Source of the DNA: an uncultured Rickettsiales bacterium
Lineage (GTDB): Bacteria; Pseudomonadota; Alphaproteobacteria; RF32; CAG-239
Direction: 5' to 3'
DNA length: 64,000 bases
Assembly (NCBI GenBank): GCA_900551865.1
Contig: URXV01000001.1
Span: 94,743-158,742 of the forward strand
Part shown: positions 47,135 through 64,000 of the stretch, one piece after another
Position numbering within the stretch: position 1 is the first letter of the stretch
Layout: each line of letters begins with the position of its first letter
Position numbers and translations under genes: made by a program
The notes under the pieces: generated by a model
Database searches by the model: none
What the model saw: only the letters and a program-made list of their open reading frames with translations
What the model was told of the DNA's origin: nothing

Positions 47135-47331
47135 TGGTGAAAATTAAAGATTTGAGAGCTATGAGCGTTGACGAGCTCGAAGCAAGACTCGTAGAATGCA
47201 AGAAAGAGCAATTAAGTTTGCGCATTCAGCAGGCTACCGGTCAGCTGCAGAACCCGTCGGCTATCTCTAAAGTTCGTAAAGAAGTAGCTCAAATCAATAC
47301 GCTTTTAACAGAGCGTAAGAAGAATAGTTAG
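47134..47331 (+). CDS. rpmC: 50S ribosomal protein L29
   Basis: 65 aa L29. Confidence 0.9.
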
Positions 47332-47342
47332 GAGAAAAACAG

Positions 47343-47585
47343 ATGCCTAAAAGAATTCTTCAGGGCGTTGTTGTAAGCGCCAAACAGGATAAGACCGTCG
47401 TTGTCAGCGTTGAGCGTCAGGTTATGCATCCTGTTTACAAGAAGATCGTTAAGAGAAGCAAGAAGTTTGCCGCTCATGACGAAAACAACCAGTTCAAAGA
47501 AGGGGATCAGGTTTCGATTATTGAATCCAAACCTTATTCCAAAACCAAGACTTGGACTGTAATCAGTAATAATGAAAATGCCTAA
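47343..47585 (+). CDS. rpsQ: 30S ribosomal protein S17
   Basis: Canonical S17. Confidence 0.95.
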
Positions 47586-47602
47586 TTAGGAAGGAATGAA
47601 TT

Positions 47603-47971
47603 ATGATACAGATGCAAACCAACCTAGATGTTGCGGATAATTCTGGAGCACGTCAGGTGCAGTGCATTAAAGTTCTTGGCGGTTCCAAGAGAATGCATGC
47701 TTCAGTCGGTGACATTATTATCGTTTCCGTAAAAGATGCAATGCCTAAAGGGCGTGTAAAGAAAGGCGACGTTCAGCGCGCGGTTATCGTCAGAACGGCG
47801 AGCGACATCAGACGCAAGGACGGAAGCGTTATCCGTTTTGACAGCAATGCGGCGGTTCTGGTCAACAAAGACGGCGAGCCTATCGGCACCCGTATCTTTG
47901 GCCCGGTTACCAGAGAGTTGCGTGCGAAAAAATTTATGAAGATAATTTCTTTAGCGCCGGAGGTTTTGTAA
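47603..47971 (+). CDS. rplN: 50S ribosomal protein L14
   Basis: [17 protein letters not shown] is canonical L14. Confidence 0.95.
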
Positions 47972-48285
47972 TGAGCAAAATGAAAATCAAAAAAGGTGAT
48001 AAAGTAATCGTTATTGCGGGTGATGACAAAGGCAAAACCGGCGAAGTCTTGAAGGCTATGCCGAAAGAAGGCAAAGTTGTCGTTCAGGGCGTCAACCTGG
48101 TTAAAAGACACACGAAGCCGAGCCAGACCAACCCCGGCGGTATTGTTACCAAAGAAGCGGCTATTCAGGTTTCTAACGTAGCGGCCGTAACGGCTGAAGG
48201 CAAGCCCTCAAAGGTTGGCTATAAGGTTGTTGACGGCATTAAGAAGCGTGTTGCCCGGAAATCCGGTGAAGTAATCGATAATTAG
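47971..48285 (+). CDS. rplX: 50S ribosomal protein L24
   Basis: KOW domain, L24. Confidence 0.95.
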
Positions 48286-48293
48286 GAGATAAT

Positions 48294-48836
48294 TTGATGA
48301 CAAATTTTGAAACATTATATAATGATGTCATTAAGAAAGCTCTTGTGGAAAAGTTCGGTTACAAGAACCCGCATGAGATTCCGAAGTTGACAAAGATTGT
48401 TCTGAATATGGGCGTCGGCGATGCCATTACAGACAAGAAAAAGCTGAACAATGCCGTTGAGGAAATGGCGATGATTGCCGGTCAGAAACCGGTAGTTACT
48501 TCCGCCAGAAAATCAATCGCAACCTTTAAGCTGAGAGAAGGCATGCCGATCGGCTGCAAGGTTACGCTGCGTTCAGACAGAATGTATGAATTCCTTGAGC
48601 GCTTGGTTAATATGGCCCTTCCGCGCATCAGAGACTTTCACGGCATTTCGGGAAAGAACTTTGACGGAAGAGGGAACTTTGCTTTTGGCATTAAAGAGCA
48701 GATTATTTTCCCTGAAATTAACTATGAAAAGGTTGAACAGGTCAGAGGTATGGATATTGTTATCTGCACTTCGGCCAAGACGGACGAAGAAGCCAAGTTT
48801 CTTCTGACATCTTTCAACTTACCATATAAGAAATAA
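48294..48836 (+). CDS. rplE: 50S ribosomal protein L5
   Basis: Canonical L5. Confidence 0.95.
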
Positions 48837-48850
48837 GCGGAGATTTTACT

Positions 48851-49156
48851 ATGTCAAAAACAAGTTCAGTATACAGAAACTTGAAAAGAGTGAAGATGGT
48901 TGCGAAATATGCGAACATCCGCTCCAAGTTAAAGGCCATTGCCGATGACAAAAACGCTCCTGAAGAAGAAAGATTTCAGGCGAATTTGAAGTTGGCAGCG
49001 TTGCCGCGCAATTCTTCAAAGGTCAGAGTAAGAAACCGTTGCAGAATTACGGGACGCTCTCGTAGTGTTAGCAGGAAGTTCGGAGTAAGCCGCGTTGAAT
49101 TGAGACAGATGGCAAGCTTCGGCGAAATTCCTGGTTTGGTAAAATCAAGCTGGTAA
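48851..49156 (+). CDS. rpsN: 30S ribosomal protein S14
   Basis: 101-aa long-form S14. Confidence 0.95.
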   Translation: MSKTSSVYRNLKRVKMVAKYANIRSKLKAIADDKNAPEEERFQANLKLAALPRNSSKVRVRNRCRITGRSRSVSRKFGVSRVELRQMASFGEIPGLVKSSW

Positions 49157-49168
49157 GGAGATGATATT

Positions 49169-49567
49169 ATGTCTATGACTGATCCTTTGGGCGATATGCT
49201 CACACGCATTAGAAACGCACAAAGAGCGAAGAAAAGTGATGTTGTATCACCGGCCTCTCGCCTGCGTGAAAATGTTTTGGAAGTTCTGAAAAGAGAAGGC
49301 TACATTGCCGGTTATGAAAAGGCCAATGTACGTCCGGGCGTTGACGAACTTCGTATTCAATTAAAGTATCATGAGGGTACAAGTGTTATTACTGAAATTT
49401 ACCGCGTTTCCACTCCGGGACGCCGCGTATATTCCAGTGTAAGAGACCTGCCTAGAGTTTACAACGGCCTCGGCATTTCCATCGTTTCAACCCCGAAAGG
49501 CGTTATGAGCGATAACGAAGCCAGAAAAGCAAACGTCGGCGGCGAAATCTTGTGCCAGGTTTTCTAG
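49169..49567 (+). CDS. rpsH: 30S ribosomal protein S8
   Basis: Canonical S8. Confidence 0.95.
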
Positions 49568-49578
49568 GGAGATAGCGG

Positions 49579-50115
49579 ATGTCAAGAGTTGGAAAATATC
49601 CCGTAATTATCCCGGAAGGCGTTAGCGCGTCCGTTAACGGCAATGTTGTTAACGTTAAAGGAAAATTGGGTGAATTAAGCTTTGCTTATGATGATTCTCA
49701 TGTAAATGTAGAAATTAACGATGGTAAAATTGTGGTTACGCCGCACTCTCAGAGCCGTACGGCACGGACGTTGTGGGGCACGACCAGAGCCCAGATCAAT
49801 TCTCTGGTAAAAGGCGTCAGCGCCGGCTACAGCAAGAGCATTGAACTGAACGGCGTTGGTTACAAAGCCCGTATGGACGGCAAGAATCTGGTTCTGACGC
49901 TGGGCTTTTCGCACGATGTACCGTTTGAAACCCCGAAAGGCATTACCATTGTCTGCGAAAGCCAGACGACCCTTAAGGTCAGCGGCGTTGACAAGCAGCT
50001 GGTAGGTCAGGTTGCGGCTGAAATTCGCAAATACAGAAAGCCTGAACCTTATAAAGGAAAAGGCATTCGCGTAGACGGCGAATATGTACGTCGTAAAGAA
50101 GGCAAGAAGAAATAG
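49579..50115 (+). CDS. rplF: 50S ribosomal protein L6
   Basis: Canonical L6. Confidence 0.95.
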
Positions 50116-50126
50116 GATGTAAAGCA

Positions 50127-50489
50127 ATGAATACACCAAGAAAATTATATGAGAAGAGAAAAGCCCGTGTTAGAACGGCTTTGAAAGCCGCAGCGAATGG
50201 AAAGATGAGACTGTCTGTATTTCGCAGCGGAAAGCATATTTATGCGCAGGTTATTGACGATGCAAAAGGTGCTACAGTTGCTTCTGCTTCTACCTTGGAT
50301 AAGGAAGTAAGAGACAATATTGCGAAGTCTTCAAATATTGAAGCTGCGCAGTATGTCGGCAAAGTAGTTGCTGAACGCGCCGTTAAAAACGGCGTCAGCG
50401 AAGTTGTGTTTGACCGTGGCGGTTATGTTTATCATGGCCGGGTGAAGGCTCTGGCGGATTCTGCCCGCGAAGCCGGATTGAAGTTTTAG
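50127..50489 (+). CDS. rplR: 50S ribosomal protein L18
   Basis: Canonical L18. Confidence 0.95.
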
Positions 50490-50495
50490 GAGGTT

Positions 50496-51065
50496 ATGAT
50501 GGCACAATCTTTAGATCGTCACAATAAGACGGACAAGAAAGAAGAACTGGTTGAGAAACTGGTTTTCGTTAACCGCGTAGCCAAGACCGTTAAAGGCGGA
50601 CGCACAATGTCTTTTGCCGCTTTGGTAGTTGTTGGTGACCAGAAAGGCCGCATCGGCTTTGGTTCCGGCAAAGCAGCCGAAGTTCCGGAAGCTATTGTTA
50701 AGGCTACAAACGAAGCGAAAAAGAATATGGTTCGCATTCCGCTTCGCGAAGGCAGAACGCTGCATCACGACATCAGCGGCAGATTTGGCGCCGGAAAAGT
50801 CGTCTTGAGAACAGCTCCTGCCGGTACCGGCGTGATTGCCGGCGGCCCGATGCGTGCAGTATTTGAAGTGCTGGGCGTTCAGGACGTTGTTGCAAAATCG
50901 CTCGGTTCCAACAACCCTTACAATATGATTAAAGCGACGTTTGCGGCTTTGCTGGCTATCAACAGCCCGCGTATGGTTGCGGCGAAGCGCGGCAAGAAAG
51001 TCGGTGATATTGTAAGCCGTCGCGAAAATACTTCTAACGTTAAGATGGACAAAGAGGAGGCTTAA
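50496..51065 (+). CDS. rpsE: 30S ribosomal protein S5
   Basis: Canonical S5. Confidence 0.95.
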
Positions 51066-51067
51066 TC

Positions 51068-51253
51068 ATGGCTAATAAAAAGACAGTTAAGGTTACTCAG
51101 GTAAAGAGTTCCATCGGCCACGGCAAAGAGCAGATTGCTACTTTGAAAGGTTTGGGCTTGAATAAAGTCGGCAGAACTTCCGTTTTGGAAGATACTCCGG
51201 CCGTTAGAGGAATGATTAATAAGGTAGCTCACCTCATTAAAGTTGAAGAATAA
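51068..51253 (+). CDS. rpmD: 50S ribosomal protein L30
   Basis: 61 aa L30. Confidence 0.9.
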
Positions 51254-51370
51254 TTGTTCAGGGGCAGCAACGGGCAGGTGTAAATCTGCCCAGCCCCGAC
51301 GGTTTGAGGTTGGGGTATCCCGAACAAGAAATTTTTGATTTTAAGTTGAGTTGAAGAAAAGGTGATAAAA

Positions 51371-51826
51371 ATGAAACTGAATGAATTAAGAGATAACGAA
51401 GGCGCCACGAAGAGCCGTATCCGCGTTGGTCGCGGCATCGGCAGCGGCAAGGGCAAAACCGGCGGCCGCGGCGTTAAAGGTCAGAAATCTCGTTCCGGCG
51501 TTTCTATTCACGGTTTTGAAGGCGGTCAGATGCCGATTTACCGCAGATTGCCGAAACGCGGTTTTAAGAATCCGTTCGCGAAGACTTTTGCCGTTATTAA
51601 TCTGGATACAATCCAGAAGGCTATTGATGCCGGCAAATTAAATGCCAATGACATCAATAAGGAAAGTTTGGTTGCTTCCAACCTGATTTCCAAAGAGTTG
51701 GACGGTATTCGCCTGTTGGCAAGAGGCGCGTTGACGGCATCTATCAATATTACGGTAGATTCTGCGTCTAAGGCGGCTGTTGCAGCGGTTGAAAAAGCCG
51801 GCGGCAAAGTTACCGTTAATGCCTAA
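51371..51826 (+). CDS. rplO: 50S ribosomal protein L15
   Basis: [30 protein letters not shown] is canonical L15, with ATG at 51371 after GAAAAGGTGA. Confidence 0.95.
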
Positions 51827-51847
51827 TCGGGTATGAAAGAAAGCAAA

Positions 51848-51873
51848 GGCAGGCTGAGAGGCCTGCCTTTTTT
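51848..51873 (+). terminator. Rho-independent terminator immediately after rplO
   Basis: GGCAGGC-TGAGAG-GCCTGCC followed by TTTTTT. Confidence 0.75.
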
Positions 51874-51944
51874 ATGGGGTGGTGGTAGGGGCTGTTGTTT
51901 GGAAGATGAATTTGAGAAGGTTAATTTAGGAAGATGGGTTTTTA

Positions 51945-52110
51945 GGTCTATGGGGGCGTTTCTGAGGGGATTTTGACGTTTGGAGAGTGGGATATCGGTA
52001 GCTGTTTTTGGGGAGAGATAGGGGCGTTTGAAGAGTAAAATGCCGATAGCCGCTTTGGGGGAGGGATTGGGGCGTAAAATATCAATAGCTGTTGGGAAGA
52101 GGGACGGTTG
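51945..52110 (+). repeat. G-rich degenerate tandem repeat (about 45-50 nt period, 3-4 copies)
   Basis: Recurring units ...GATAGC(T/C)G(T)TTTGGGGAG(A/G)GAT(A/T)GGGGCGT(TT/AA)... It is non-coding; the minus-strand ORF here is Pro-rich nonsense. Confidence 0.5.
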
Positions 52111-52142
52111 CCGGCGGAGGTGTGAGCGGGAGGGAAAACGAC

Positions 52143-52580
52143 CTATTCGGCGAAAGTAGTCCATTGTGGCATATTGAGCAGCGTGTTCAACCGGCTGCAA
52201 AAGTTTTCACCCAAGCTGAAAGAATTAAGAAGTTTAGCATTACGTTCTGTCAGCAGAATAAAACTGAAACGGTTGGGGTTTTGCCGGTCTTTGACACATA
52301 AGTACGGATAAGTCTGGGCGACGACGTTTCTTCTTTTCCATTTATACGCCCGGCCCTCATAAATCTTATAGGGGAGCCGGGGGCAGGCATAGGGAGAACG
52401 GGCAGGTTGAATTAGGGTGTCGCTGATTTTTTCTTTTTGCCATTCGGGGAAAGTCTGAATCAATGTGTAGCATGATATGACATCGTCTTCGGAAATTTTT
52501 TCAACGGAAACCGCAGGCCGGGAAAAAACGGGAAGCAGACAGAGAGTTATGATGAGGAATATACAGTTGTGTTTTTTCAT
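52143..52580 (-). CDS. Hypothetical secreted protein
   Basis: Signal peptide MKKHNCIFLIITLCLLPVFSRPAVS. I moved the start to internal ATG 52580. Confidence 0.45.
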   Translation of the reverse strand: MKKHNCIFLIITLCLLPVFSRPAVSVEKISEDDVISCYTLIQTFPEWQKEKISDTLIQPARSPYACPRLPYKIYEGRAYKWKRRNVVAQTYPYLCVKDRQNPNRFSFILLTERNAKLLNSFSLGENFCSRLNTLLNMPQWTTFAE

Positions 52581-53108
52581 GCGAATAGCCCTTTTTGCTT
52601 TAAATGTCCTGAATACAGAAAAACCACCTGAGAGGTGGCCGGGAAGTTCGCAAATCAAATACGATTAAATGATTCTCTAGGCTTTTAAAGTCTGAGACTT
52701 CTGGACATATCCTAAAGCTCCCCGACCTTTTGCAGTCGGGGATATAATCAATTATCAGCCGATTTCAGGCTGGTAATTTTACGATGTTATATCCTGAACA
52801 CCGAATCGTATTAGAGGCTTGCGACAGCCCGCACCGTCTCCGGCACTTGCAGATGTTGCCATCTGCTGTTTGTATATTACCGGGTATTGAATTTTGTGCA
52901 AGTTTTTTTTGCAGGGCGGGTAATAACTTGGTAAAGAAATTGCTTGACAGGCCGAGGTCGGCCTGATATTTTGCTTATGAGCTTGGCAAACGCTCGGAAT
53001 GTCCGCCAAAGGATTCATTGCCATAATGTTTTTTTACATAGATTTCTTGAGACGGCTTATTCAGCCCATCGGGCAGGCGATAAGGTAAGTTGTCGGAAAG
53101 GAATTGCC

Positions 53109-54503
53109 ATGAGCGAATATGTTGAAGTCTTCCGGGTGGAAGCAAAATCTTTGTTAAAAAATTTCCGGAAAAATGAAAAAGAGGCAATTGCCAGATGCGA
53201 AAGGGTGTTTGGCGATAGGCGCGATTTGTCGTTGATGAATATGCAGCACGTTGTCGCCAAAGAGTACGGGTTTGACAGTTGGAACGAACTGGTCAAGGCA
53301 GAGCGCTGGCAGTTGGCGAAAGCTTTGACTGCGACGAAAAATAAAACACTGCATACGTCGCTTTATATCAGCGGGCACAAGGAGGCAAAGTATCCGTTTG
53401 CTGACGGGAAAAGTACCGTTGGGTTGAGACGGGAACGTGAAGGCGTGGATTTGGTCAATTTTCAAAGGATATATGCAAATGGTTCAACGTCTCCGTATTT
53501 GCCTTTGGATGCGATGGATTTGTCGCAGTATGATTTGTCAAAGCTTAATGTTTTGCGGGCGGATTATGACGACTATACGTTGTGGCCGGAAGAAGCAGCC
53601 AAGAGGCCGGAAGGTTTTGAACCGGCGGAATTTTTGGAAAAAAGGAAAAATCCCGGTTTGGGGATAAGGGCGCTGCATAAGCAGGGAATTGACGGCAGAA
53701 ATCGGGCTGCGGCGGTGATTGATGGTTTTTTGCTATGTGACCATTTGGAATATCATGACAATTTGAAGTGGTATGAACGGGTGGATTCCGGTGAATCACG
53801 GTATGGAAATGCTGGCGGGGAACTTGTTTCTGCATTGGCCGGGAAAACGTGCGGCGTGGTGCCGAAAGCAGACATATATTATTTTTCAGCTTTGCAGACG
53901 GAAAACAAGCAGCGGACGCAGCGGTATTATGCGCAAGCTCTGGAAAAAATATGTGATTTGCACGAAGAACGGCGGAAAGAGGGCAAAAACGGCATTGACG
54001 TCGTATGCATTTTGTGGGGCATAACGAGCGAGTTGTTTCAAAATGATGACGGAGCGGCGGAGATGCGGACAGCCATAAAACGGGCAGCGGATTTGGAAAT
54101 CTGGGTTAACTCCGGGCATCCGGATTTTGCCGGAAATGAGCTGTGGCGTGAAAGCCGGGTATGTTGCAAGGCAGACGGAGATTTGGATAATCCTGACGAT
54201 TATACGGTTATGTTGCATGAATTAGATATGGCAAAGTTTCCGGAGCTGACAAGGAATACGTTGTGTTTTCCGGGTGGCGGAAGAACGGTTGCCGGTTCTG
54301 TCCGGTTGGATGCCTATCGTTTTTCGGCACCGGGATTTTCGCTTAAGCCTTATGAATGCGGTTTGTTTGTGCTGGCGCGGAGCGTCAAGCCGGATTTGAC
54401 GGCGGAAGAATTCTGGCGTGTCGGGCTGGAGACCGGCGATTTTCGTGACGGTATCGGCGTGATTGTCAATCCGCGGCGGCTGATTGCGGCGCTGCGGGGT
54501 TAA
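53109..54503 (+). CDS. Hypothetical protein (weak subtilase-like Asp-box, catalytic His apparently absent)
   Basis: AAAVIDGFLLCDHLEYHDNL resembles the S8 AVIDTG...HPDL region, but no clear HGTH or GTSxA motifs follow. 464 aa. Confidence 0.45.
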   Translation: MSEYVEVFRVEAKSLLKNFRKNEKEAIARCERVFGDRRDLSLMNMQHVVAKEYGFDSWNELVKAERWQLAKALTATKNKTLHTSLYISGHKEAKYPFADGKSTVGLRREREGVDLVNFQRIYANGSTSPYLPLDAMDLSQYDLSKLNVLRADYDDYTLWPEEAAKRPEGFEPAEFLEKRKNPGLGIRALHKQGIDGRNRAAAVIDGFLLCDHLEYHDNLKWYERVDSGESRYGNAGGELVSALAGKTCGVVPKADIYYFSALQTENKQRTQRYYAQALEKICDLHEERRKEGKNGIDVVCILWGITSELFQNDDGAAEMRTAIKRAADLEIWVNSGHPDFAGNELWRESRVCCKADGDLDNPDDYTVMLHELDMAKFPELTRNTLCFPGGGRTVAGSVRLDAYRFSAPGFSLKPYECGLFVLARSVKPDLTAEEFWRVGLETGDFRDGIGVIVNPRRLIAALRG

Positions 54504-54555
54504 TATGGGCGGGAGAGGCGCAAAACCTCTCCCAGATTTGCGGAGATTTGACGAA

Positions 54556-55035
54556 ATGAATAAAAATGTAGAAATTTTGATTGCAGCGGCGGAAGATGCG
54601 GGAGATATCGCGCGGCTGTCGTATCAGGTCGGGAAAATGCACGACGAGGCATTGCCGGATTATTTTAAGCCGACGACGGAAGCGGAACATCTGGAGATTG
54701 TCCGCAAAATGGCGGCGGATGACAAAACGGTTTTGCTTAAGGCGGTTTGCGAGGGGAAAATTTGCGGCTTTATCTGCCTTTTTATGCAGGAAACGCCGCG
54801 AAAAGGATATGTACATTCAAAAATCGGCTATATTTATAATTTCGGCGTTGATGAGATGTGCCGGGGGCAGGGAGTTGGTTCACTTTTGTTGAAAAAAGCG
54901 GAAGTTTTTTTGCGAGACAGGGGCGTTGAAGCAATAGAGTTGAGCGTGTTCTGTTTTAACCGGCGGGCTATCGGATTTTATGAGCGAAACGGTTATCAGG
55001 CTTTAGAGGTAAATCTGCATAAGGTTTTGCAGTAA
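54556..55035 (+). CDS. GNAT family N-acetyltransferase
   Basis: RGQGVGSLLLKKAE...FYERNGY contains the acetyl-CoA binding motifs. Confidence 0.8.
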   Translation: MNKNVEILIAAAEDAGDIARLSYQVGKMHDEALPDYFKPTTEAEHLEIVRKMAADDKTVLLKAVCEGKICGFICLFMQETPRKGYVHSKIGYIYNFGVDEMCRGQGVGSLLLKKAEVFLRDRGVEAIELSVFCFNRRAIGFYERNGYQALEVNLHKVLQ

Positions 55036-55121
55036 CGAGGAAAAGCGGCAGCGTAAATTCGGGTAAAAAATTGGCGATATAATTCGGTTGAAGTTGTTAT
55101 TGTTTGTGGAGGTAAAAATAG

Positions 55122-55805
55122 ATGTCCGGGATTGTGGAAAAGGCTTTAACATTTGCAAGGGAATGCCACAGTGGCGATAATTCCGGACATGATTTTGAGC
55201 ATATCCGGCGGGTTTTGGCCAATGCAGAGAAGATAGCGGCGGAAACGCCGGAGGCTGACGCTGAGGTTGTACGGTTGGCGGCGGTTTTGCATGACATTGA
55301 CGATTATAAGCTGCATAACGGAGGAGCAAGGGCGGAGCTTTTTCTGCGGGAAGCCGGCGCGGCGGACGAAGTGCGGGAAAAGGTTCTGGCGGTTATAGAA
55401 GCAATCGGCTTTTCCAAATCGGGGAGCAAGCCGCGTTTTACGATGATTGAACAGGCGGTGGTTTCCGACGCGGACAAGCTGGATGCGATGGGAGCGGTCG
55501 GCGTATGCCGGACGGTTATGTATTCGGCGGCGACGGGACGGGAATTGTTTAATGAGAGGGAATTTCCGAAAGAAAACCTGACGGCGGCGGAATATAAGGA
55601 CAAGAACCGCTCTGGCAACCATTCCGTAAACCATTTTTTCGATAAGTTGCTGAAACTTAAGGGAGCAATGCAGACGGTGGCAGGAAGATGCGAGGCGGAA
55701 CGGCGCCACGAGTTTATGGTGATGTTTTTACAGGAGTTTTTTGACGAGGTGCGGGCGCCGGAATGGCGGGCGTATCTGGGTGATTACCTGAAACGCGCGG
55801 AGTAG
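55122..55805 (+). CDS. HD-domain phosphohydrolase
   Basis: H...HD signature: HDFEHIRRV...AVLHDIDD...DADKLDAMG. Confidence 0.8.
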   Translation: MSGIVEKALTFARECHSGDNSGHDFEHIRRVLANAEKIAAETPEADAEVVRLAAVLHDIDDYKLHNGGARAELFLREAGAADEVREKVLAVIEAIGFSKSGSKPRFTMIEQAVVSDADKLDAMGAVGVCRTVMYSAATGRELFNEREFPKENLTAAEYKDKNRSGNHSVNHFFDKLLKLKGAMQTVAGRCEAERRHEFMVMFLQEFFDEVRAPEWRAYLGDYLKRAE

Positions 55806-56102
55806 CGGCAAGGCGGGGATGAGGCAGGGGAAGCGAGAGGGGGATACCGGGGATTTACGGAGCCGACGATGTTGACGGTGTTTGCGAAAGCGGCAGAATC
55901 TTTTAAACGAATCGGGGTTGACTAGAGGTGAAAAATATGGTATACTTCTCTTGTTTACCATATTATTGTTCCTATAGATTTGAATACCGTTCTTTAGAGC
56001 TCATTGCTTTGGGGAAGGTTCGGGTTTTGGCGCTTTAATTTGGTGAGCCGTTAAGGGGAAAATCTTCTTAATGTATTTCTTAAAATTTAATTTTTTTTAT
56101 TT

Positions 56103-57698
56103 ATGAGAACAAACATTTTTTTGCAGCTGTTTGCTGCAATTGTGAGAAATTTTTTCCCGGGTTGGGCAGTAAGGCATTTTACCTGTAAAGGGAATCCGAA
56201 CGTCAGGCTGTATCTTCCCAGAAGTGTTGAAAAACAGCTTCGTCTGATTGACAAACTGAAGTTTGACACGGATGAACTCCGCGAACGCGAATGGTGGACA
56301 GAAACAAAGGTGGTTCTTCTTCTCAAGGGGAATTACAGTTTGCTGCCTGAAATCAGGACTGAGCAGGAGTTTGAAGCTATCGTGGACTCGGCGGATGTTG
56401 AGCGTGTAGCGCAGGCGATGAAGTATTATACGCCAAACAAGGCGGGTATGCTTCGTCTGCTGAACCGATACGGGTTGGAAACGGTGGAGTTGATTAAGGC
56501 TGTGCCGTCGGCTTTTGATTCTCTGATGCCGTGGGAAGTCCTTGGCGTCAGGGTGGATGAAGCCGCTTCCGTTGACGACAAACGCTGGGCATTGGCTGAG
56601 GCTCTGGTTTCTGCGAAATCTTCCTGGGCGCCCAAGTTTATGTTGGAGCTGCGCAAGATTGTTCCGCAACAGTTGAGCGAAATCGAAAAAGGGCGTTTTG
56701 AGCACTTTTTCAATCGGGCTTTTGACGCCAGAGAAGACATCTCGGAGTTAATGCCGTATATGGCGGTGTTCTTTTCGGAGTTGTACGCCAAAGTGCGGGA
56801 AAATTATTACAGGTACGATGATTTTTCACCGTATTTTCGTATGATGTTTCCGCAGCGGCGCAAATACCTGAGAGGCCATAATGAGGTGAAAGACCTGCGT
56901 GTGGCAGCAGTATCAGGCCAGTTGGAAGACTGGGCGGATGCCTATGCGTGGTTATCAATCGGTGTCAGCCGGTTGGGTAACGCACGGGTTTACGGCTGTA
57001 TTCTGTCTTTTTTGACGCAGTTGAAAGAACTGCTGTCAACGGAGGCTTACATCCAGTTATTCGGCTTAATGGCTGATAATGTCAAATTGGCGCATGATGT
57101 TGAAATATTAATGAATTGCGGTGAGGAGGCATATCGGACAAAGCTTCGTGAGAAATTGGTCGAGTGCGGCACATCGACGTTTTTGCGGAATCAATTTCCG
57201 TTTGCGGGCTGGGATGAAAAGCTGGCGAAGGATGCGCTTGCCGTTCTGGCCAGCGGTGATATGATTCCGGTACAACGATTGAATGAGTTGACGCCGGTTT
57301 TGCAAAAAGCCGCGGCTGACATTATGGAAGCCAGAGCACAGATTGCGGCAGTTCGGGCAGATGCTTTTGCTGCCGTAGAGTACCATCTGTGCCCGGCGGC
57401 TGAAAGCGTGCTGTTTTCGCTGGATTTTCGCAGCCAGAAGTATAAACTTCTTTATATTGACAAATACAAAATTGCGGATATGACGTTTTTGTATATGCTG
57501 AATAAGGAGTTTAACTACGTTGAAGACAAGGGAAACCTGTATGAACTGGTCGGCGCTTATGCCCGTAAGTGGGGTTTGACCCGTGAGCAGTATCTGGCTA
57601 TTTTACAAAGCAAAATCAAAGAGAATGCACTTTCTCTTAAAAGCTTTGTAAAAGACGAGGAACCGGAACGTGGCGTCGGCGGCGAGAGTACGCTGTAA
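56103..57698 (+). CDS. Hypothetical protein, likely all-alpha
   Basis: 531 aa with no recognisable motif and a weak RBS, so the start is uncertain. Confidence 0.45.
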   Translation: MRTNIFLQLFAAIVRNFFPGWAVRHFTCKGNPNVRLYLPRSVEKQLRLIDKLKFDTDELREREWWTETKVVLLLKGNYSLLPEIRTEQEFEAIVDSADVERVAQAMKYYTPNKAGMLRLLNRYGLETVELIKAVPSAFDSLMPWEVLGVRVDEAASVDDKRWALAEALVSAKSSWAPKFMLELRKIVPQQLSEIEKGRFEHFFNRAFDAREDISELMPYMAVFFSELYAKVRENYYRYDDFSPYFRMMFPQRRKYLRGHNEVKDLRVAAVSGQLEDWADAYAWLSIGVSRLGNARVYGCILSFLTQLKELLSTEAYIQLFGLMADNVKLAHDVEILMNCGEEAYRTKLREKLVECGTSTFLRNQFPFAGWDEKLAKDALAVLASGDMIPVQRLNELTPVLQKAAADIMEARAQIAAVRADAFAAVEYHLCPAAESVLFSLDFRSQKYKLLYIDKYKIADMTFLYMLNKEFNYVEDKGNLYELVGAYARKWGLTREQYLAILQSKIKENALSLKSFVKDEEPERGVGGESTL

Positions 57699-57881
57699 TG
57701 TATTCTGAACCGGGAACGGTATATGATAAGGGATGACGAAAGTCGTCCCTTTTTTGTGTGTCGGGAAAAGGCAATTCGTAATTTTTCCTTTTAAATAAAA
57801 TATTTATTGATTTATTCAATTTTTAGTATAAGATGTAATAGATATGTTAATTTTTTTAGAATTTATTCTAGAGGAGGAGAT

Positions 57882-58115
57882 ATGTTAGACAGGTCAGACT
57901 TATTAGATGCAAAGCATTTAAGGCGGCGCAGTATGTTTTATTACCAGTCAATCCGACCCTGTGTGTATAAAGAGAGCACATTCGGCCATAATTGCGGAAC
58001 GGATATGTATTTTGTGGAGCAGCGGGCATTGCGCAGCGGTTATCGTAATTCGCGTGCCGGCGTTGTCGACGGGACAGTCGGCAGAATGACTGCCCTGCCT
58101 CCGATTTACTGGTGA
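57882..58115 (+). CDS. Small ORF (77 aa) with consensus RBS, candidate exported peptide or regulatory leader peptide
   Basis: GAGGAGGAG lies 5 nt upstream of ATG in an AT-rich promoter-like region. The ORF is followed at once by a terminator. It has two Cys. Confidence 0.35.
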   Translation: MLDRSDLLDAKHLRRRSMFYYQSIRPCVYKESTFGHNCGTDMYFVEQRALRSGYRNSRAGVVDGTVGRMTALPPIYW

Positions 58116-58120
58116 TTTTT

Positions 58121-58144
58121 GCGGCGTCGGCGCCGTTTTTTTTG
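58121..58144 (+). terminator. Rho-independent terminator after the small ORF
   Basis: CGGCG-TCGG-CGCCG followed by TTTTTTTTT. Confidence 0.6.
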
Positions 58145-58170
58145 TATTATCTCCGTAAACAAGCAATGAA

Positions 58171-58240
58171 CCGAAAAAAAAGCCGTATTAACTATGATAA
58201 ATATGACCCGAAAAAACGTATTAACTATGGTAAATATTGG
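58171..58240 (+). repeat. Two tandem 33-bp direct repeats upstream of an ABC exporter gene
   Basis: CCGAAAAAA(AG)CCGTATTAACTATG(A/G)TAAATAT occurs twice with 33-nt phasing. Confidence 0.5.
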
Positions 58241-58376
58241 CGGGGCTGTATGGGCACGGTGCGGTTTTTGAATCCGGGAAGTGCCTGGTACGGCGTGCTT
58301 TCGGCGTAAAGATTTATGCTGGACACCGTGCAAATTTTATGGTATCATTTTCATATGGGAAAACGGAGATTTGGCA

Positions 58377-60647
58377 ATGGCGAAAGAAAAAGACAATAAA
58401 ATTCCCAATTTTGCGGAGTATGAACGGAAACGGCTGCTGGAACTGGCCGGACAAGCGCGCAAAGCAGTACTGGAACTGAAAAAAACTAAAGAGTCCGGGA
58501 ACAGGACAGATGGAGACGGCGGCGGCATTTTGAGTGGTGCGGAAGGGAAGGCCAAAGAACAGGGAACGCTTAAAACGGTATGGGGCGTTTTTCAGGAAGC
58601 CTGGCACAAAACCGGAAAGGATTTCAAGAAGTCTGTCGGATTTAAGATGGGAGAGTCGGTTTTTGCCGGGTTAAACCCTTATTGTCAGAACTTGCTGTTC
58701 GGTTCGCTGCCGGGACTTGTCAATGGTGCGGGCGGCGCGGCGGCAAAGTTTTTTGGCGCTGCGATTTTGGAGATTACCCGCAAAAGGCTGTCTAACTTTT
58801 GCCGGTTTAAGGCAAAAATGGCGTCAATTGTTTTGAACGATACGCACGCCAATGCCGCGTCGAGTTCCATTTATGAAGATATTTTGCATAAACCGCGTCC
58901 GTATTTTAAAGACAATGCTCCGGCGGCGTTAGGCGGGATTACCGGGGAAATTGCTTCGGCGAAGAATACGCTTTTGAATACGTCGGTTGAGTGTTTGTCA
59001 AAAGCCGTCATATTCGGTATCAGCTCCGCCAGCCTGTTGGCCGTGGATCCGATGCTGGCGGCGGGCGTTCTCGGCGTAACGGCGGTGACTGCGGAATTCG
59101 GCGGGTTTATGAATAACGCTTACCGGAAATTAAACAGCAAAATGCGTTCGTTTGGCAACCGTATCAGGAAAGATAACAGCGATTCAATAAAAAATACGCC
59201 GCTGGTTCAGGATACGAACCGGGTTGAGGAGGAAACGCGGCTGATGCGCAGCAGGCTTGACCATTCATCGGGGATTACGCAGAAAATCACTTATGAAAAG
59301 AGCAAGGCGTATCTGAAAATGCAGACGGCAATCAGTATCGGAATGGAGGGGCTGATTATGGCGGCGGCGTTTGCCGATGTGGTTAAGACCGGGGATATCG
59401 GGCGGTTTGCCCTTATCAGCTCGGCATCTTGGCAAATGATGATGTCGGGCAGTATGCTTTCAGAGTTGTGGAACGAAATGCAGGCCGGAACGCACCGCTT
59501 GATTGACGCTTCCAAAAAGCTGATTACGCCGAAGGAACTGGAACGCGTTACAGGCAATGAAAAACTGTCGGAACGAGATACCAAAATCAGCGTGCAGAAT
59601 GTCAGTTTTGCGTATCCGCTGATTAAGGACGTTACGGATATGAGCCTGGTTGAGGCAATGGACAGAGACGGTGAAATCAGGCGGACGGAGAATGTCCTCA
59701 AAAATATGAGCGTTGAATTTGACAAAGGCGGTTTGACGGCAGTGGTCGGAACTTCCGGCAACGGAAAATCAACGCTGATGAGCCTGATACGGCATGATTA
59801 TGACGTGCAGGAGGGGAAAATATTTATCGGCGACAAGGAAATACGCGAACTTTCCGACCGGGAGTTGAACGCGCAGATAACGTTTGTTGACCAGAAAGTT
59901 CACTTTTTTGACGATACGGTGGGATATAACCTTAAATATTTTAAGCCCGGAGCGACGGAAGAAGAGCTGATGGAAGCCTGCCGCAAAGCCGGTTTTGACA
60001 GGGATGTTGAAAAGTTTAAAGACGGGCTCTCGCATAGAATCGGACAAGACGGCGCCAAACTTTCGGGCGGGCAGCAGCAGCGTCTGGCTTTGGCGCGCGC
60101 TTTTCTGACGGACAAGCCGATTGTTATTATGGACGAACCGACGACGGGGCTTGACGGGCAGCTCAGCCTGAAAGTTATGAAAGCGCTTAAGGAGATGGCA
60201 AAGGAAAAAACGGTCATTATGGTTACGCATAATCCGGCGGAAGTCGCCCTTTCCGACCGGGTGGTCGTGGTGGAAAAAGGGGAAATCTCAGCGGACGGGA
60301 AGCCGCAGGATTTGATAAAATCAAATGAGTTTCTGCGTTCGTTCCTGACCAAAGACGACATTAAGACGAAGCGACAGTTGTATAATGTCAGCGTCAACGG
60401 CATCAATCCGAAGAAAGAGGCGGCGGAACTTTTGAATCAGGAAGCCGACGGCAGAGTTTTGAGCGATGCGGAGCGGGCGGAGAAACGCAAGCTGTTGGAA
60501 GCGCATAAACGGGCGTATGTCGGCGTGCGCAAAAATGCGATTAAGAGCGAGCGTGCCAAGGCAGGAAAAACGTTGCCGGAGAAAAAAGAACGCCGGCCTT
60601 TGCAGCCGGTACCGGCCGTTCCGGTCAAAGGCGGGGCGGAGATGTGA
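58377..60647 (+). CDS. ABC exporter, fused TMD-NBD, with N- and C-terminal extensions
   Basis: Walker A GTSGNGKST, signature LSGGQQQRL, Walker B VIMDEPTTGLD. The hydrophobic Ala/Gly-rich TMD is preceded by a charged segment of about 100 aa and followed by a Lys/Glu-rich tail of about 110 aa. Confidence 0.8.
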   Translation: MAKEKDNKIPNFAEYERKRLLELAGQARKAVLELKKTKESGNRTDGDGGGILSGAEGKAKEQGTLKTVWGVFQEAWHKTGKDFKKSVGFKMGESVFAGLNPYCQNLLFGSLPGLVNGAGGAAAKFFGAAILEITRKRLSNFCRFKAKMASIVLNDTHANAASSSIYEDILHKPRPYFKDNAPAALGGITGEIASAKNTLLNTSVECLSKAVIFGISSASLLAVDPMLAAGVLGVTAVTAEFGGFMNNAYRKLNSKMRSFGNRIRKDNSDSIKNTPLVQDTNRVEEETRLMRSRLDHSSGITQKITYEKSKAYLKMQTAISIGMEGLIMAAAFADVVKTGDIGRFALISSASWQMMMSGSMLSELWNEMQAGTHRLIDASKKLITPKELERVTGNEKLSERDTKISVQNVSFAYPLIKDVTDMSLVEAMDRDGEIRRTENVLKNMSVEFDKGGLTAVVGTSGNGKSTLMSLIRHDYDVQEGKIFIGDKEIRELSDRELNAQITFVDQKVHFFDDTVGYNLKYFKPGATEEELMEACRKAGFDRDVEKFKDGLSHRIGQDGAKLSGGQQQRLALARAFLTDKPIVIMDEPTTGLDGQLSLKVMKALKEMAKEKTVIMVTHNPAEVALSDRVVVVEKGEISADGKPQDLIKSNEFLRSFLTKDDIKTKRQLYNVSVNGINPKKEAAELLNQEADGRVLSDAERAEKRKLLEAHKRAYVGVRKNAIKSERAKAGKTLPEKKERRPLQPVPAVPVKGGAEM

Positions 60648-60695
60648 TTTTTCACTGAATGGCCGCGTTTGGGGGCAAGAGACGTGATTTTGCGT

Positions 60696-62630
60696 TTATG
60701 CGGAAAATGCACCTGACGTTTGCAGATTGTAAAGGCGGCGGAAAAGGCCGCTTTTGTTTTTGAGGAGTTTTTGCGGGGTTCCGTCTTCAACGACGATGCC
60801 GTTGTCCAGAACGATAATCCGGTCCATACGGCGCAGGGTGGAGAGGCGGTGGGCGACGGCGATGACGGTTTTGTGCTGCATAATATTCTGTAAAGCCTGC
60901 TGAATTGCGGTTTCAGATTCGCTGTCAAGCGCCGAGGTGGCTTCGTCCAGAATGAGAACCGGCGCATTTTTAAGGAGCGCTGCGGCTATGGCTATGCGCT
61001 GGCGTTCGCCGCCGGAAAGCTTGACGCCGCGTTCGCCGACAATGCTGTCGTATCCCTGGGGAAGTTTCATAATCGTGTCGTGAATACAGGCGAGCCGGGC
61101 GGCGGCGCGGACTTCTTCATCAGTGGCTTTGGGGCGGGCGAAACGGATGTTTTCCGAGATTGAACGGTTAAACAAAGCCGGTTCCTGCGCGATGAGGGAA
61201 ATGTTTTGATGCAGTGAGAACAAGGTTACGCCGGCGATGTCCTGTCCGGCAATGAGAATTTTGCCGCTTTGCAAATCATAGGCGCGGAGCAGCAGGTTGA
61301 CGAGGGTTGATTTTCCGGCGCCGGAAAGGCCGACGATACCGATTTTTTCTCCGGCGGCAATGTTCAGGTTCAGATTGGAGAATAGCGGTTTGTCCGGCGT
61401 GTAGGAGAAAGCGGCGTTTTGGAAAGATATGGAAGGAGGCATAGGCCGGAGTGTGGGGGTGGTGGCCGGGACGGCGGCATCGGATGCGGAGAGGGGAGTG
61501 TTTGTTGCAGGAGCGGCGGTACCGGGTGCGGAGAGGGGAGTGTTTGTGGTTGGGACGGAGGTACTGGGTGCGGAGAGGGGAACGTTTGCGGCAGGAGCGG
61601 CAGTGTCGGATTTGTCCGCAGGAAAGCGTTTGAGGACAAGCCGGCGGGCGTTTGGGGCGTCGGTTATTTCAAGCGGTTTGTACAGGAGGCTGAGCGCGTC
61701 TTCTACAGCGCCAAGTTGTTTTTGGAACCGGATAACGTTATCTCCGAACATTTCACAGGGGGTGTGCAACAGATTGATATAAGTCAGGGTAATCAGCGTC
61801 TGGGTCAGATTCAAATCTTTTATCTGCCAGTAATAGATAAGGATTGACAGGGAGGTCAGCCGGAGCGCCAGCGCTATCGTGATATTATAGCTGTGGGAGA
61901 TGCCTATTTCCTTTCCCCTTTGAATGCAGCTGCGAACCCATTTATTGACGGCTTTGGCGAGGCAGACGCGTTCGTGCGGAAAGGCAGCGCAGTTTTTGAC
62001 CAGGCGGGCGTTGGCTATGCTGTCCACCATAATTCCGGAAACGGCGGATTCAAGCCTGGCGGCGTCGCGGGAAACCGGTTTGAGTTTTCGGCAATGGGTG
62101 TAGTCTATAATTGATACGGCGATGCAGAAAACGAGCAGAGTGAGCGCCAGCCCGCCGTTAATCTGAAACAGAATCGGGAAAGCCACGGCATAGGGCACGA
62201 TGACACCTTCCAGAAAACCTTTGAATCTCCAAACAATATCGCGCGTGCTGTTTTCCAGACTGAGGATTTTATCGGATACGGTTCCGGACATTTCGGCGGC
62301 AAAATAAGCGGGGGAATGTTTGTGCGTTTGCCGGAACAGGCTGACAAGGAGATTTTTTTTGAGCCGGATATCCATACGGTATTCAAAAAAGGTGCGAACG
62401 CCGTCGGCAATGTTTGAGCCAAAATGGAGCGCGGCGTAGACGGCAAGCCAGGACAGGGCGGCAGAAGAAAACGCCTGCCCGGGGTGCGTGCCGATATATC
62501 CGAACAAGGCGGCGATGCAGTAATTGTCCAGATAAATGAGAACGCGGGAAAGGGCAAAAAGCCCGTAAGTGGCAAGCGTATAGTATTTTATTTTCCACAG
62601 GCTGCGGAAGATGAATTTGGCGGCGGTCAT
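60696..62630 (-). CDS. ABC exporter permease/ATP-binding protein (MsbA-like) with Pro/Thr/Ala repeat insert
   Basis: 6-TM domain then NBD (GLSGAGKST, LSGGERQRI, LILDEATSALD). A 14-aa x3 repeat lies between TMD and NBD. Confidence 0.9.
   Translation of the reverse strand: MTAAKFIFRSLWKIKYYTLATYGLFALSRVLIYLDNYCIAALFGYIGTHPGQAFSSAALSWLAVYAALHFGSNIADGVRTFFEYRMDIRLKKNLLVSLFRQTHKHSPAYFAAEMSGTVSDKILSLENSTRDIVWRFKGFLEGVIVPYAVAFPILFQINGGLALTLLVFCIAVSIIDYTHCRKLKPVSRDAARLESAVSGIMVDSIANARLVKNCAAFPHERVCLAKAVNKWVRSCIQRGKEIGISHSYNITIALALRLTSLSILIYYWQIKDLNLTQTLITLTYINLLHTPCEMFGDNVIRFQKQLGAVEDALSLLYKPLEITDAPNARRLVLKRFPADKSDTAAPAANVPLSAPSTSVPTTNTPLSAPGTAAPATNTPLSASDAAVPATTPTLRPMPPSISFQNAAFSYTPDKPLFSNLNLNIAAGEKIGIVGLSGAGKSTLVNLLLRAYDLQSGKILIAGQDIAGVTLFSLHQNISLIAQEPALFNRSISENIRFARPKATDEEVRAAARLACIHDTIMKLPQGYDSIVGERGVKLSGGERQRIAIAAALLKNAPVLILDEATSALDSESETAIQQALQNIMQHKTVIAVAHRLSTLRRMDRIIVLDNGIVVEDGTPQKLLKNKSGLFRRLYNLQTSGAFSA
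61486..61611 (-). repeat. 42-nt tandem repeat x3 within the ABC exporter coding sequence
   Basis: GCGGAGAGGGGAGTGTTTGT... recurs at 61486, 61528 and 61570 and encodes ...TNTPLSAPGTAAPA... repeats. Confidence 0.7.
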
Positions 62631-64000
62631 TGGTTTTCTCCATAAGTCAGGTAGCCGTTGTTTTGCATTTGGCAGAGTTTGCGGAAGATGCCGTTCGGGC
62701 GGCTGAGGAGTTCGGCGGGAGAGCCGTCTTCGGCGATTTTCCCGTTATCAAGAACGATAATCCGGTTCATGTGGCGCAAGGTGGAAAGGCGGTGGGCGAC
62801 GGCGATGACGGTTTTATCCTTAATCAGGTTTTGCAGGGCTTTTTCAATCAGGGATTCAGACTGGCTGTCAAGCGCGGAGGTTGCTTCGTCCAGAATGAGC
62901 ACGGGCGCGTTTTGCAAAATGGCGCGGGCAATCGCAATACGTTGCCTCTCGCCGCCGGAAAGCAAAACGCCGCGTTCGCCGACGATGCTGTCGTATCCCT
63001 GGGGAAGTTTCATAATCGTATCGTGAATGCAGGCGAGGCGGGCGGCAGCGCGGATTTGTTCCATTGAGGCTCTGGGACTGGCGATGCGCAGGTTTTCGGT
63101 TATGGAACGGTTGAGCAGCGACGTATCCTGCGGAACGACGGCGATGTTCCGATGCAGGGAACGGAGCGTCAAATCCCTGATGTCGTTATGGTTAATGAGG
63201 ATTTTGCCGTTGGTAACGTCATAGGAGCGCAGGAGCAGGTTGACGAGGGTGGATTTGCCGGAGCCTGAATGTCCGACGAGGCCGATTTTCTGTCCGGGTT
63301 CTATCTTCAGATTAAGGTTTTGGAATACGGGGCGGCCTTTGACATAGGAGAAACTGACGTTTTGGAACGTGATTGACGCTTTTGACGTGCGCAGGGTTTT
63401 GGCGTTTTCTTTTTCGGAAATGTCCGGCGGGAGATTTATGACGTCAAAATTGGCTTTCAGGCCGCCGAACAGGTCGGCGCAGAACTGGCTGAAATTGTTA
63501 ATCAGCATAATTGAGATTACCATACCGGAAAGCGTGGTATAGACATAGAAAAGATTGTCAAGCGCGATATTGTCGCGTTTGGCAAAAAAGAGGATGAGAA
63601 GAACGCTGACGCTCAGGAATACCGTGTCTGCGGCATGAAAGGCGAAACGGGAAAAAGTCTGGTATTTTCCCTGCGCGGCATGCAGGCGGTAGGCCTCTTT
63701 GAGATGTTTGTAGAAATACAGCTGTTCGGTAAAGAATGAACCGGAGTATTTGACAAGGCCGGCGTTGGCAATGCTGTCTACCAGTATGCCGCGGGCTTTG
63801 TTTTCGGCTTTTGTTTTGTCGTTACTGAGGGTGAAGAAGCGGCGGTTGACTTTATAAACGGCAAAGAAGTACGGAATGTTTAACGCCAGCAGGGAAAGGC
63901 TTAACGCCGGACTGAAAGCGGCGATAATGGCAAACGATACAATCAGCGTGCAGAGCGGGCGCACCAGCATATAACAGGTGTCCGTAAACGCAGAAACCAG
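62627..64000 (-). CDS. ABC exporter permease/ATP-binding protein, partner of the preceding gene, 5' end outside the window
   Basis: NBD motifs GHSGSGKST, LSGGERQRI, LILDEATSALD. The frame stays open past nt 64000. It overlaps the downstream gene by 4 nt (translational coupling). Confidence 0.85.
   Translation of the reverse strand: MVSAFTDTCYMLVRPLCTLIVSFAIIAAFSPALSLSLLALNIPYFFAVYKVNRRFFTLSNDKTKAENKARGILVDSIANAGLVKYSGSFFTEQLYFYKHLKEAYRLHAAQGKYQTFSRFAFHAADTVFLSVSVLLILFFAKRDNIALDNLFYVYTTLSGMVISIMLINNFSQFCADLFGGLKANFDVINLPPDISEKENAKTLRTSKASITFQNVSFSYVKGRPVFQNLNLKIEPGQKIGLVGHSGSGKSTLVNLLLRSYDVTNGKILINHNDIRDLTLRSLHRNIAVVPQDTSLLNRSITENLRIASPRASMEQIRAAARLACIHDTIMKLPQGYDSIVGERGVLLSGGERQRIAIARAILQNAPVLILDEATSALDSQSESLIEKALQNLIKDKTVIAVAHRLSTLRHMNRIIVLDNGKIAEDGSPAELLSRPNGIFRKLCQMQNNGYLTYGENQ

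Follow-up and report, generated by a model that had tools for sequence, protein, structure and literature searches.

Positions 52143-64000 of a 64,000-nucleotide stretch of DNA from an uncultured Rickettsiales bacterium (contig URXV01000001.1; the whole stretch is referred to here as the window) encode nine proteins: a subtilase-like protein of 464 aa (p464), a GNAT acetyltransferase, an HD-domain phosphohydrolase, three ABC half-transporters (ABC756, ABC644 and ABC586), and the proteins p145, p531 and p77. The analysis indicates that this segment is probably a vertically inherited, indel-prone piece of chromosome comprising about six separate transcription units and not one system; within it p464 and the GNAT form a module, p531 is independent, and p77 is not a precursor peptide. 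Generic ABC exporters, a GNAT and an HD hydrolase beside orphan genes are an ordinary assortment, and the evidence does not bear out the idea of a new system for secretion or peptide export. The points of interest that remain are a new family of pseudo-subtilases that pairs with a GNAT (in some loci also with an ABC exporter) and a strain-variable all-alpha orphan, both of which are confined to a group of uncultured gut Alphaproteobacteria.

Organization and conservation of the segment

The gene inventory was based on a listing of open reading frames (ORFs), gene calls on public contigs of the same or nearly the same sequence, and Pfam and NCBIfam scans of the nine proteins, and the cluster proteins were mapped onto 57 loci (cited below by their L numbers). 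The features are, in order:

52143-52580, minus strand: p145, 145 aa, N-terminus hydrophobic and signal-like; found in the closest relatives only
52944-52972, plus strand: promoter-like site TTGACA-17-TATTTT, TG-extended, upstream of p464; consensus match 10/12
53109-54503, plus strand: p464, 464 aa; helical N-terminal domain (about residues 1-78), low-confidence linker, S8 fold
54556-55035, plus strand: GNAT, 159 aa; PF00583 at E = 7e-20, 71.9 bits against a cut-off of 20.7
55122-55805, plus strand: HD, a putative stand-alone HD-domain phosphohydrolase, YedJ-like; PF01966, 37.6 against 22 bits
55918-55946, plus strand: promoter-like site TTGACT-17-TATACT, TG-extended, within the 297 nt separating HD from p531
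56103-57698, plus strand: p531, 531 aa; all-alpha orphan, an allelic cassette between strains
57728-57751, plus strand: intrinsic-terminator-like hairpin after p531; 10-bp stem followed by a T run
57882-58115, plus strand: p77, 77 aa; small, basic, Tyr/Arg-rich protein
58121-58136, plus strand: intrinsic-terminator-like hairpin after p77; kept in L010 and L024
58166-58237, no strand assigned: tandem direct repeat, 33 nt x 2.1 copies, in the spacer between p77 and ABC756
58320-58348, plus strand: promoter-like site TGGACA-17-TATCAT, TG-extended, upstream of ABC756
58377-60647, plus strand: ABC756, 756 aa; divergent ABCB-type half-transporter
60696-62630, minus strand: ABC644, 644 aa; PF00664 and PF00005; second gene of a coupled pair
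62627 to beyond 64000, minus strand: ABC586; PF00664 and PF00005; first gene of the pair, running off the window (586 aa in L001)

An initial annotation of this DNA had named the same features, and all of them exist at or near where it had placed them (ORF listing, gene calls, family scans). Its degenerate subtilase-like protein of 464 aa is borne out by PF00082 homology, an S8-fold model and the loss of His and Ser, and its GNAT and HD enzymes by PF00583 and PF01966 matches; its four hypotheticals (p145, p464, p531 and p77) are without a specific match in Pfam, NCBIfam, PADLOC and PHROGs scans. The 77-aa ORF does have a strong ribosome-binding site (AGGAGGAG, 6 nt upstream of the ATG) and a terminator-like hairpin of its own, and the convergent ABC genes on the minus strand do overlap by 4 nt (ATGA). 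For the first ABC gene the unusual extensions are real, but the GTG start at 58281 (788 aa) most likely gives way to a conserved ATG at 58377 (756 aa). The structural comparisons that had been recommended returned a subtilisin fold for p464 and, for p531, no recognizable fold relative in the PDB.

The promoter-like sites before p464, p531 and ABC756, together with the hairpins after p531 and p77, argue for separate transcription. The predicted units would be p145 (unit 1), p464-GNAT(-HD) (unit 2), p531 (unit 3), p77 (unit 4), ABC756 (unit 5) and ABC586-ABC644 (unit 6).

Comparative data point the same way. Among the 57 loci mapped, only those with synteny from rplO to groES contain the complete gene set. 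As their flanks are syntenic too, shared descent by itself would account for conservation of the block; because HD, p531, p77 and p145 are limited to a single narrow syntenic lineage, their co-occurrence is uninformative. Gene content still varies inside this lineage, where the presence of HD, of p145 and of an additional ABC gene encoding 649 aa (described below) differs among loci, and distant pseudo-subtilase loci lack p77, p531 and HD. In all close relatives the segment lies between rplO and a glycosyltransferase-groES-groEL region, and no integrase-, transposase- or phage-specific match was found among the proteins scanned; the segment is therefore regarded as chromosomal and vertically inherited, and a mobile island was ruled out. 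All genes tested are under purifying selection, with ratios of nonsynonymous to synonymous substitution (dN/dS) of 0.04-0.34.

A pseudo-subtilase lacking the catalytic His and Ser

The sequence and the structural model identify p464 as a predicted cytoplasmic pseudo-subtilase, in which the S8 fold is kept and the catalytic His and Ser are lost; this identity follows from homology, loss of the triad, a confident model of the S8 fold, and the lack of a hydrophobic segment, none being found in p464. A word-indexed search with p464 gave about 85 close homologues, all without Pfam domains. Alignment with PF00082 subtilases extends over 65-85% of the query at 28-35% identity (31-35% where about 70% of p464 is covered), p464 itself scoring below the Pfam gathering score, with no Pfam match at E<=0.01. 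At the catalytic positions of the alignment p464 has Ala for His, and Phe for Ser with a 2-residue deletion. Among the p464-type homologues Asp is retained in 59/80, His in 1/80 and Ser in 5/80, whereas active S8 relatives keep each of the three in 29/29.

The AlphaFold2 model of p464 has a predicted local distance difference test score (pLDDT) of 89 and a predicted template modeling score (pTM) of 0.90. Compared with the PDB it gives 216 matches at E<=0.001; all 50 matches listed are subtilisin-family structures, with TM-scores (normalized to target) of about 0.55-0.65 among those listed, and the p464 sequence profile also matches PDB subtilases. Thus the subtilisin alpha/beta fold is found in p464, and the Asp-His-Ser triad is not. 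A conserved helical domain of ~78 residues opens the pseudo-enzymes, in the place where active relatives have a signal or anchor sequence.

The closest sequence relatives of p464 are these secreted S8 subtilases (annotated 'AprX' or 'S8/S53 family peptidase'; P0119-P0151), which share with it a KNPGLGIRxLHxxGIxG block and the overall fold. Unlike p464 they carry the N-terminal signal or anchor and the full triad, and they have no GNAT or ABC neighbors. The best-known bacterial parallels are CspC and CspA of C. difficile, subtilisin-like pseudoproteases that have lost triad residues and are thought to be binding or signaling proteins; the Csp proteins act in spore germination in Firmicutes, working with the active subtilase CspB (PMC7200643; PMC6636752). 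Like CspC and CspA, p464 keeps the S8 fold without the catalytic His and Ser. It differs from them in being alphaproteobacterial and Gram-negative (autotransporters are encoded nearby in relatives), in having its own helical N-terminal domain, and in being paired with a GNAT and not with an active protease.

Pairing of the pseudo-subtilase with a GNAT

The protein encoded directly after p464 is a GNAT, as also indicated by the acetyl-CoA motif RGQGVG (of the Q/R-x-x-G-x-G/A type) read from its translation. It scores below every NCBIfam equivalog cut-off (best PRK03624, 53 against 124 bits), and its best PDB relatives are uncharacterized. Pseudo-subtilase and GNAT genes adjoin in the window lineage, L005, L006-type loci, L019, L021, L034-L039, L043 and L046, which represent at least 4 genomic contexts, and the GNATs concerned are 35-65% identical to that of the window. 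The arrangements of the pair include:

window lineage, L005, L006-type: downstream of rplO
L019: order reversed, GNAT first, after HSP20
L021, L034, L036, L039: after a peptidyl-prolyl isomerase (PPIase) gene, with unrelated or variable genes inserted between the two
L035: preceded by a gene whose N-terminal motif suggests a translational GTPase
L043: before fba

L019 encodes a second GNAT that gives no match to the window type, and the link with the pseudo-subtilase is thus limited to one GNAT subfamily. None of nine active S8 relatives is encoded next to a GNAT or ABC gene. In L021, L039 and L043 an ABC half-transporter gene adjoins the pair, and its product is 39-44% identical to the 649-aa type; in a neighbor-joining tree the 649-type groups with the pseudo-subtilase-linked transporters, and the 756-type forms the sister clade. 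Judged from these gene neighborhoods, the pairing of pseudo-subtilase and GNAT is probably functional.

The genes inserted between the two differ in kind. L036 has a gene for a DUF4932 protein (L036:11508-12455); L039 encodes a 314-aa protein with a zinc-peptidase-like HELGH motif (HExxH; L039:11438-12382); and L021 encodes a 156-aa protein with a hydrophobic N-terminus, a charged remainder and no family match (L021:11551-12021). A common third component at this position was considered and ruled out, as the L036 and L039 inserts are mutually unrelated; the L021 insert seems, short of a direct comparison, to be of yet another kind.

The pairing suggests a possible mechanism, in which the dead protease would keep its peptide-binding cleft and serve as a substrate-recognition partner of the acetyltransferase, the GNAT would acetylate a peptide or protein amine, and the transporter, where present, would export the acetylated product. 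Carried to its full extent, this proposal holds that the pseudo-subtilase and its dedicated GNAT, with a divergent ABC half-transporter where there is one, constitute an undescribed peptide-sensing or acetylation/export module of uncultured gut Alphaproteobacteria in which the dead protease gives substrate recognition, and that separately p531 represents a new all-alpha family held as highly divergent within-species alleles, as expected for interaction with a host, phage or competitor. We advance it tentatively and regard it as doubtful in this complete form. Literature searches returned no description of a pseudo-subtilase/GNAT/ABC module. Should the two proteins indeed work together, they would provide an example from bacteria of a dead protease taken over as an acetyltransferase partner, and would give a first handle on the lineage-specific biology of a common but uncultured group of gut Alphaproteobacteria.

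Several observations weigh against the view of the segment taken here. The pairing is not obligatory, since L020 has a lone pseudo-subtilase and L040 has no GNAT downstream of it (the upstream side is cut by the contig end); several of the contexts share nearby genes (an opp-like permease, accA, HSP20), so the samples are not fully independent; the grouping of the 649-type with the pseudo-subtilase-linked transporters has a bootstrap value of 65 only, in a simple neighbor-joining tree; and the role of p464 as partner of the GNAT is purely inferred. As to the transcription units, the promoter and terminator calls are consensus matches, and terminator-like sites are enriched only modestly, 24 against 14.9 ± 4.6 expected. 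Moreover, p531, p77 and ABC756 are found together wherever ABC756 occurs, which makes a functional link among these three possible. The lone pseudo-subtilase of L020 and the shared nearby genes also favor the explanation that there are no functional links at all, the adjacency of pseudo-subtilase and GNAT being a leftover of shared ancestry in one family of gut Alphaproteobacteria; the pseudo-subtilase-type homologues do all come from one group (metagenome-assembled genomes labelled Alphaproteobacteria, Pseudomonadota or 'Acetobacter sp.'). However, the adjacency outlasts both inversion of the gene order (L019) and unrelated insertions (L021, L036, L039), and it persists beside rplO, HSP20, a PPIase gene, a translational-GTPase-like gene and fba, with p464 identity down to 38%. 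Pure leftover adjacency is therefore judged quite unlikely.

The 649-aa ABC gene and the HD gene

The 649-aa ABC gene is located between GNAT and HD in L006-type loci and in the nearest species (L010:6786-8967; also L026-L032). The window lacks it, and the absence is clean, with 86 nt left between the two genes (55036-55121); it is absent too from L018 and L005. These three absences suggest repeated loss. The strain has thus apparently lost an orthologue of the pseudo-subtilase-linked transporter and keeps the pair only.

HD is probably the last gene of a p464-GNAT-HD unit yet lies outside the conserved module; it is absent from L005 and from all distant pseudo-subtilase loci. The protein aligns over nearly its full length with 3djb, 5dqv and 3gw7 (YedJ) at E = 1e-17 to 2e-36, and resembles in this respect the group of stand-alone HD proteins of ~210-230 aa to which YedJ and 5dqv belong. 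It differs from the YedJ equivalog in score (81 bits with PRK10119, against a cut-off of 286). B. subtilis YpgQ, a member of the YedJ-type HD group, is a (d)NTP pyrophosphohydrolase.

p531, an all-alpha orphan probably exchanged between strains

An identical p531 protein is present on 23 public contigs. Its AlphaFold2 model consists entirely of helices (pLDDT 90), and when the model was compared with the PDB by Foldseek the only matches were to generic HEAT/ARM-like solenoids (E>=0.015, TM<=0.29), from which no fold could be assigned; a profile search against PDB sequences likewise returned zero solved relatives. An exhaustive profile search found 119 representatives of the family, mostly of 480-620 aa, and 33 distant members that were scanned contain no Pfam domain.

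Between the window and L024, nucleotide identity within p531 is 59-76% in 150-nt bins, while the flanks are mostly 95-100% identical, and the borders of the divergent region are sharp, near 56.0 and 57.8 kb (window 56000-57800; L024:3960-5760). The synonymous divergence (dS) of p531 is 1.18, compared with 0.04-0.10 in the flanking genes, and dN/dS is 0.25. A closer allele, with 80% amino-acid identity, is found in the more distant species L010 (L010:10001-11584). The sharp drop of identity within the gene, the high dS combined with this dN/dS, and the closer allele of L010 together form the signature, as read from these alignments, of divergent alleles exchanged by recombination and not of rapid positive selection. 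The p531 cassette marks a locus shaped by more than ordinary vertical descent, for example by inter-strain recombination.

Lone p531 homologues are found in L011 and L022 (48-49% identity), where the gene order is ABC-F, a 184-aa gene, p531, a cold-shock gene and ankyrin-repeat genes; no other gene of the cluster occurs within 8-10 kb where sequence is available. The repeat proteins beside these lone homologues are large ankyrin/MORN-repeat proteins (L011:12701-15613; L022:6805-9711), and a coupling-protein gene of a type IV secretion system (T4SS) lies near the lone pseudo-subtilase gene of L020 (L020:2991-5210). Ankyrin/MORN-repeat proteins and T4SS features are typical of host-associated bacteria.

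p77 and the tandem repeat

The sequence comparisons identify p77 as a real, strongly constrained gene. All 77 columns of the family alignment are ungapped, with 44-64% identity and an invariant C-terminal IYW, and dN/dS against L010 is 0.044, as low as that of rplO; the family comprises 7 clusters only. The alignment contains no Gly-Gly leader motif, no conserved Cys (both Cys residues of the window protein vary) and no leader/core layout. With conservation over the full length, variable Cys residues and no Gly-Gly motif, p77 does not look like a precursor peptide. The gene is bracketed by the hairpins at 57728-57751 and 58121-58136, and is probably monocistronic.

The 33-nt repeat downstream has two copies in the window and in the near-identical L024, one in L010, and none in L005, L006 and L008. 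It is a recent duplication, for which a function is unlikely; an operator or regulatory array was considered and ruled out, the repeat not being conserved in relatives.

The ABC genes and the question of an export locus

Canonical Walker A, signature and Walker B motifs can be read from the translations of all three ABC proteins, and all three align with MsbA-type models and structures, as do MsbA/ABCB-type half-transporters of the type IV fold. They differ from MsbA and its like in that none reaches an equivalog cut-off: in NCBIfam scans the MsbA, CydDC and glucan exporter cut-offs are unmet by all three, whose scores lie under half of the equivalog cut-offs (for example TIGR02203, 214-307 against 602 bits).

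By sequence ABC756 is paralogous to the 649-type; it is preceded by a promoter-like site of its own and carries additional extensions at both termini. It is 38-41% identical over the full length to L006_649 and L021_618, and the -10 region before the gene is conserved in relatives as the block TTTTATGGTATCAT of the alignment. Relative to the 649-aa paralogue the N- and C-terminal extensions are of ~70-90 aa each, the N-terminal one without a family match and the C-terminal one charged. PF00005 and TIGR02203 cover residues 250-682 of the 788-aa ORF, and MsbA (3b5x) aligns over 165-649; the transmembrane domain (TMD) is only weakly hydrophobic, with 2-3 distinct segments reaching the hydropathy threshold of 1.6. 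As there is no PF00664 match and hydropathy is low, membership of the ABCB type is weaker for ABC756 than for ABC644 and ABC586. In L007 the orthologue (ABC755; L007:12149-14415) is split into ORFs of 575 and 180 aa, by a frameshift or an assembly error.

ABC586 and ABC644 are similar to the 649- and 756-types in the nucleotide-binding domain (NBD) only. Their two half-transporter genes, in which the stop codon of one overlaps the start codon of the other, are arranged like those of known heterodimeric exporters, and this translationally coupled pair most likely specifies a heterodimeric exporter. ABC644 differs from MsbA-type proteins in a Pro/Ala/Thr-rich linker between TMD and NBD, encoded by an in-frame tandem repeat of 42 nt x 3.1 (61472-61601); since the orthologues have 626 aa (L010) or 581-582 aa (L005, L006), the insertion is lineage-specific and variable in length. 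L013-L016 have three ABC half-transporter genes and not two in the convergent array (~14450-19660), and the best match of the extra protein is ABC644 (51-54% identity) in L014-L016 and ABC586 (45%) in L013.

A small ORF followed by repeats and ABC exporters, together with the GNAT and HD enzymes, had led the initial annotation to propose an export locus for a bacteriocin, an effector or a ribosomally synthesized and post-translationally modified peptide (RiPP). In this explanation the whole cluster would be one peptide production-export system, with p77 as the precursor, GNAT and HD (perhaps also p464 and p531) as modifying proteins, and the three ABC proteins as exporters. It draws on the position of a small ORF with a strong ribosome-binding site directly upstream of an ABC exporter gene, on the fact that p77 and ABC756 adjoin in every locus that has either, on the proximity of a protease-fold protein and an acetyltransferase, and on the extra protease-like genes beside the pseudo-subtilase in some relatives, such as that for the HExxH protein of L039. 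Peptidase-containing ABC and RiPP export loci (TIGR01193, TIGR03796) do resemble the segment in having a small ORF upstream of an ABCB-type half-transporter, and their NBD and part of the TMD align, but the scores are 154 against 524 and 152 against 853 bits, and the C39 domain, leader/core precursor and RiPP enzyme are all lacking here. Pfam and NCBIfam scans found no C39 peptidase domain in the ABC proteins and no RiPP-class maturation enzyme, the nine proteins showing only GNAT, HD and ABC domains; in Pfam scans and gene calls neither the segment nor the flanking genes of L001 showed an HlyD or OEP/TolC-like domain; and the models for type I secretion (HlyB, PrtD, LssB) scored far below their cut-offs.

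The conserved and constrained p77, lacking a hypervariable core, argues against a precursor, as the predicted terminators that flank it and the separate promoter-like site of ABC756 argue against a common transcript. The 'protease' is catalytically dead, HD, p531 and p77 are absent where the pseudo-subtilase/GNAT/ABC trio lies outside the syntenic lineage, p531 occurs alone elsewhere, and the repeats, which the proposal had counted as part of the export locus, are a recent duplication. A single production-export system is accordingly very improbable. As to the expectation that relatives would conserve the cluster as a block, this holds beyond synteny for pseudo-subtilase, GNAT and ABC half-transporter, but for the remainder in syntenic relatives only. 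The annotation had also named, as what would speak against it, placement of the proteins in unrelated housekeeping families and a lack of co-conservation; GNAT, HD and ABC proteins do fall into generic families, yet p464 and the GNAT are co-conserved.

A different explanation divides the segment into two lineage-specific modules, one of pseudo-subtilase, GNAT and sometimes an ABC protein, and another of p531, p77 and ABC756, in which p77 and/or p531 would be a substrate, regulator or accessory subunit of ABC756. The order and spacing of p531, p77 and ABC756 are kept in all ABC756 loci, even where p531 identity is as low as 42%; no other gene of the stretch is as constrained as p77 and ABC756; and the extensions of ABC756, missing from the 649-type paralogue, could dock a partner. 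But all such loci are syntenic over >20 kb, so that adjacency carries no independent weight, and L011 and L022 have p531 but neither p77 nor ABC756. Each gene has predicted transcription signals of its own, and the p531 allele is swapped while p77 and ABC756 stay 99-100% identical, which argues against tight co-adaptation. A second module of this kind is improbable, and p531, p77 and ABC756 are preferably read as separate units.

p145 and the setting of the segment

The sequence of p145 is that of a lineage-specific small secreted protein, with one hydrophobic segment at residues 6-24 (MKKHNCIFLIITLCLLPVFS). It is called as a gene in L003, L005, L010 and L024 at 51-98% identity, with dN/dS of 0.08, while L006-type loci lack it and have AP endonuclease, MFS and bPH genes in the same interval.

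Metagenome matches carry the names of human-gut assemblies or JGI metagenome (Ga...) identifiers. A PADLOC scan of the cluster proteins gave generic ABC-ATPase matches and two marginal ones (GNAT and HD, E about 1e-3), and no defense-system assignment. When 51700-64000 was scanned with Rfam (E<=1), two matches remained below threshold and no family reached it, so that no RNA element was identified.

Upstream of the segment, rplO ends the S10-spc ribosomal operon and is not followed by secY-adk-rpsM, a breakpoint common to the relatives. A terminator-like hairpin follows rplO (51362-51870 region; called on the minus strand; loci L001, L005, L006 and L008 compared). Past the rplO terminator lies a G-rich, non-coding spacer of ~300 nt (51870-52140) with two repeats, 48 nt x 2.1 (51977-52075) and 14 nt x 2.8 (51898-51936), neither of which has an Rfam match. 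GC skew is strongly positive (+0.08 to +0.33) across 44000-64000, the minus-strand ABC genes included, which indicates a strong compositional bias of the strand that is independent of gene orientation.

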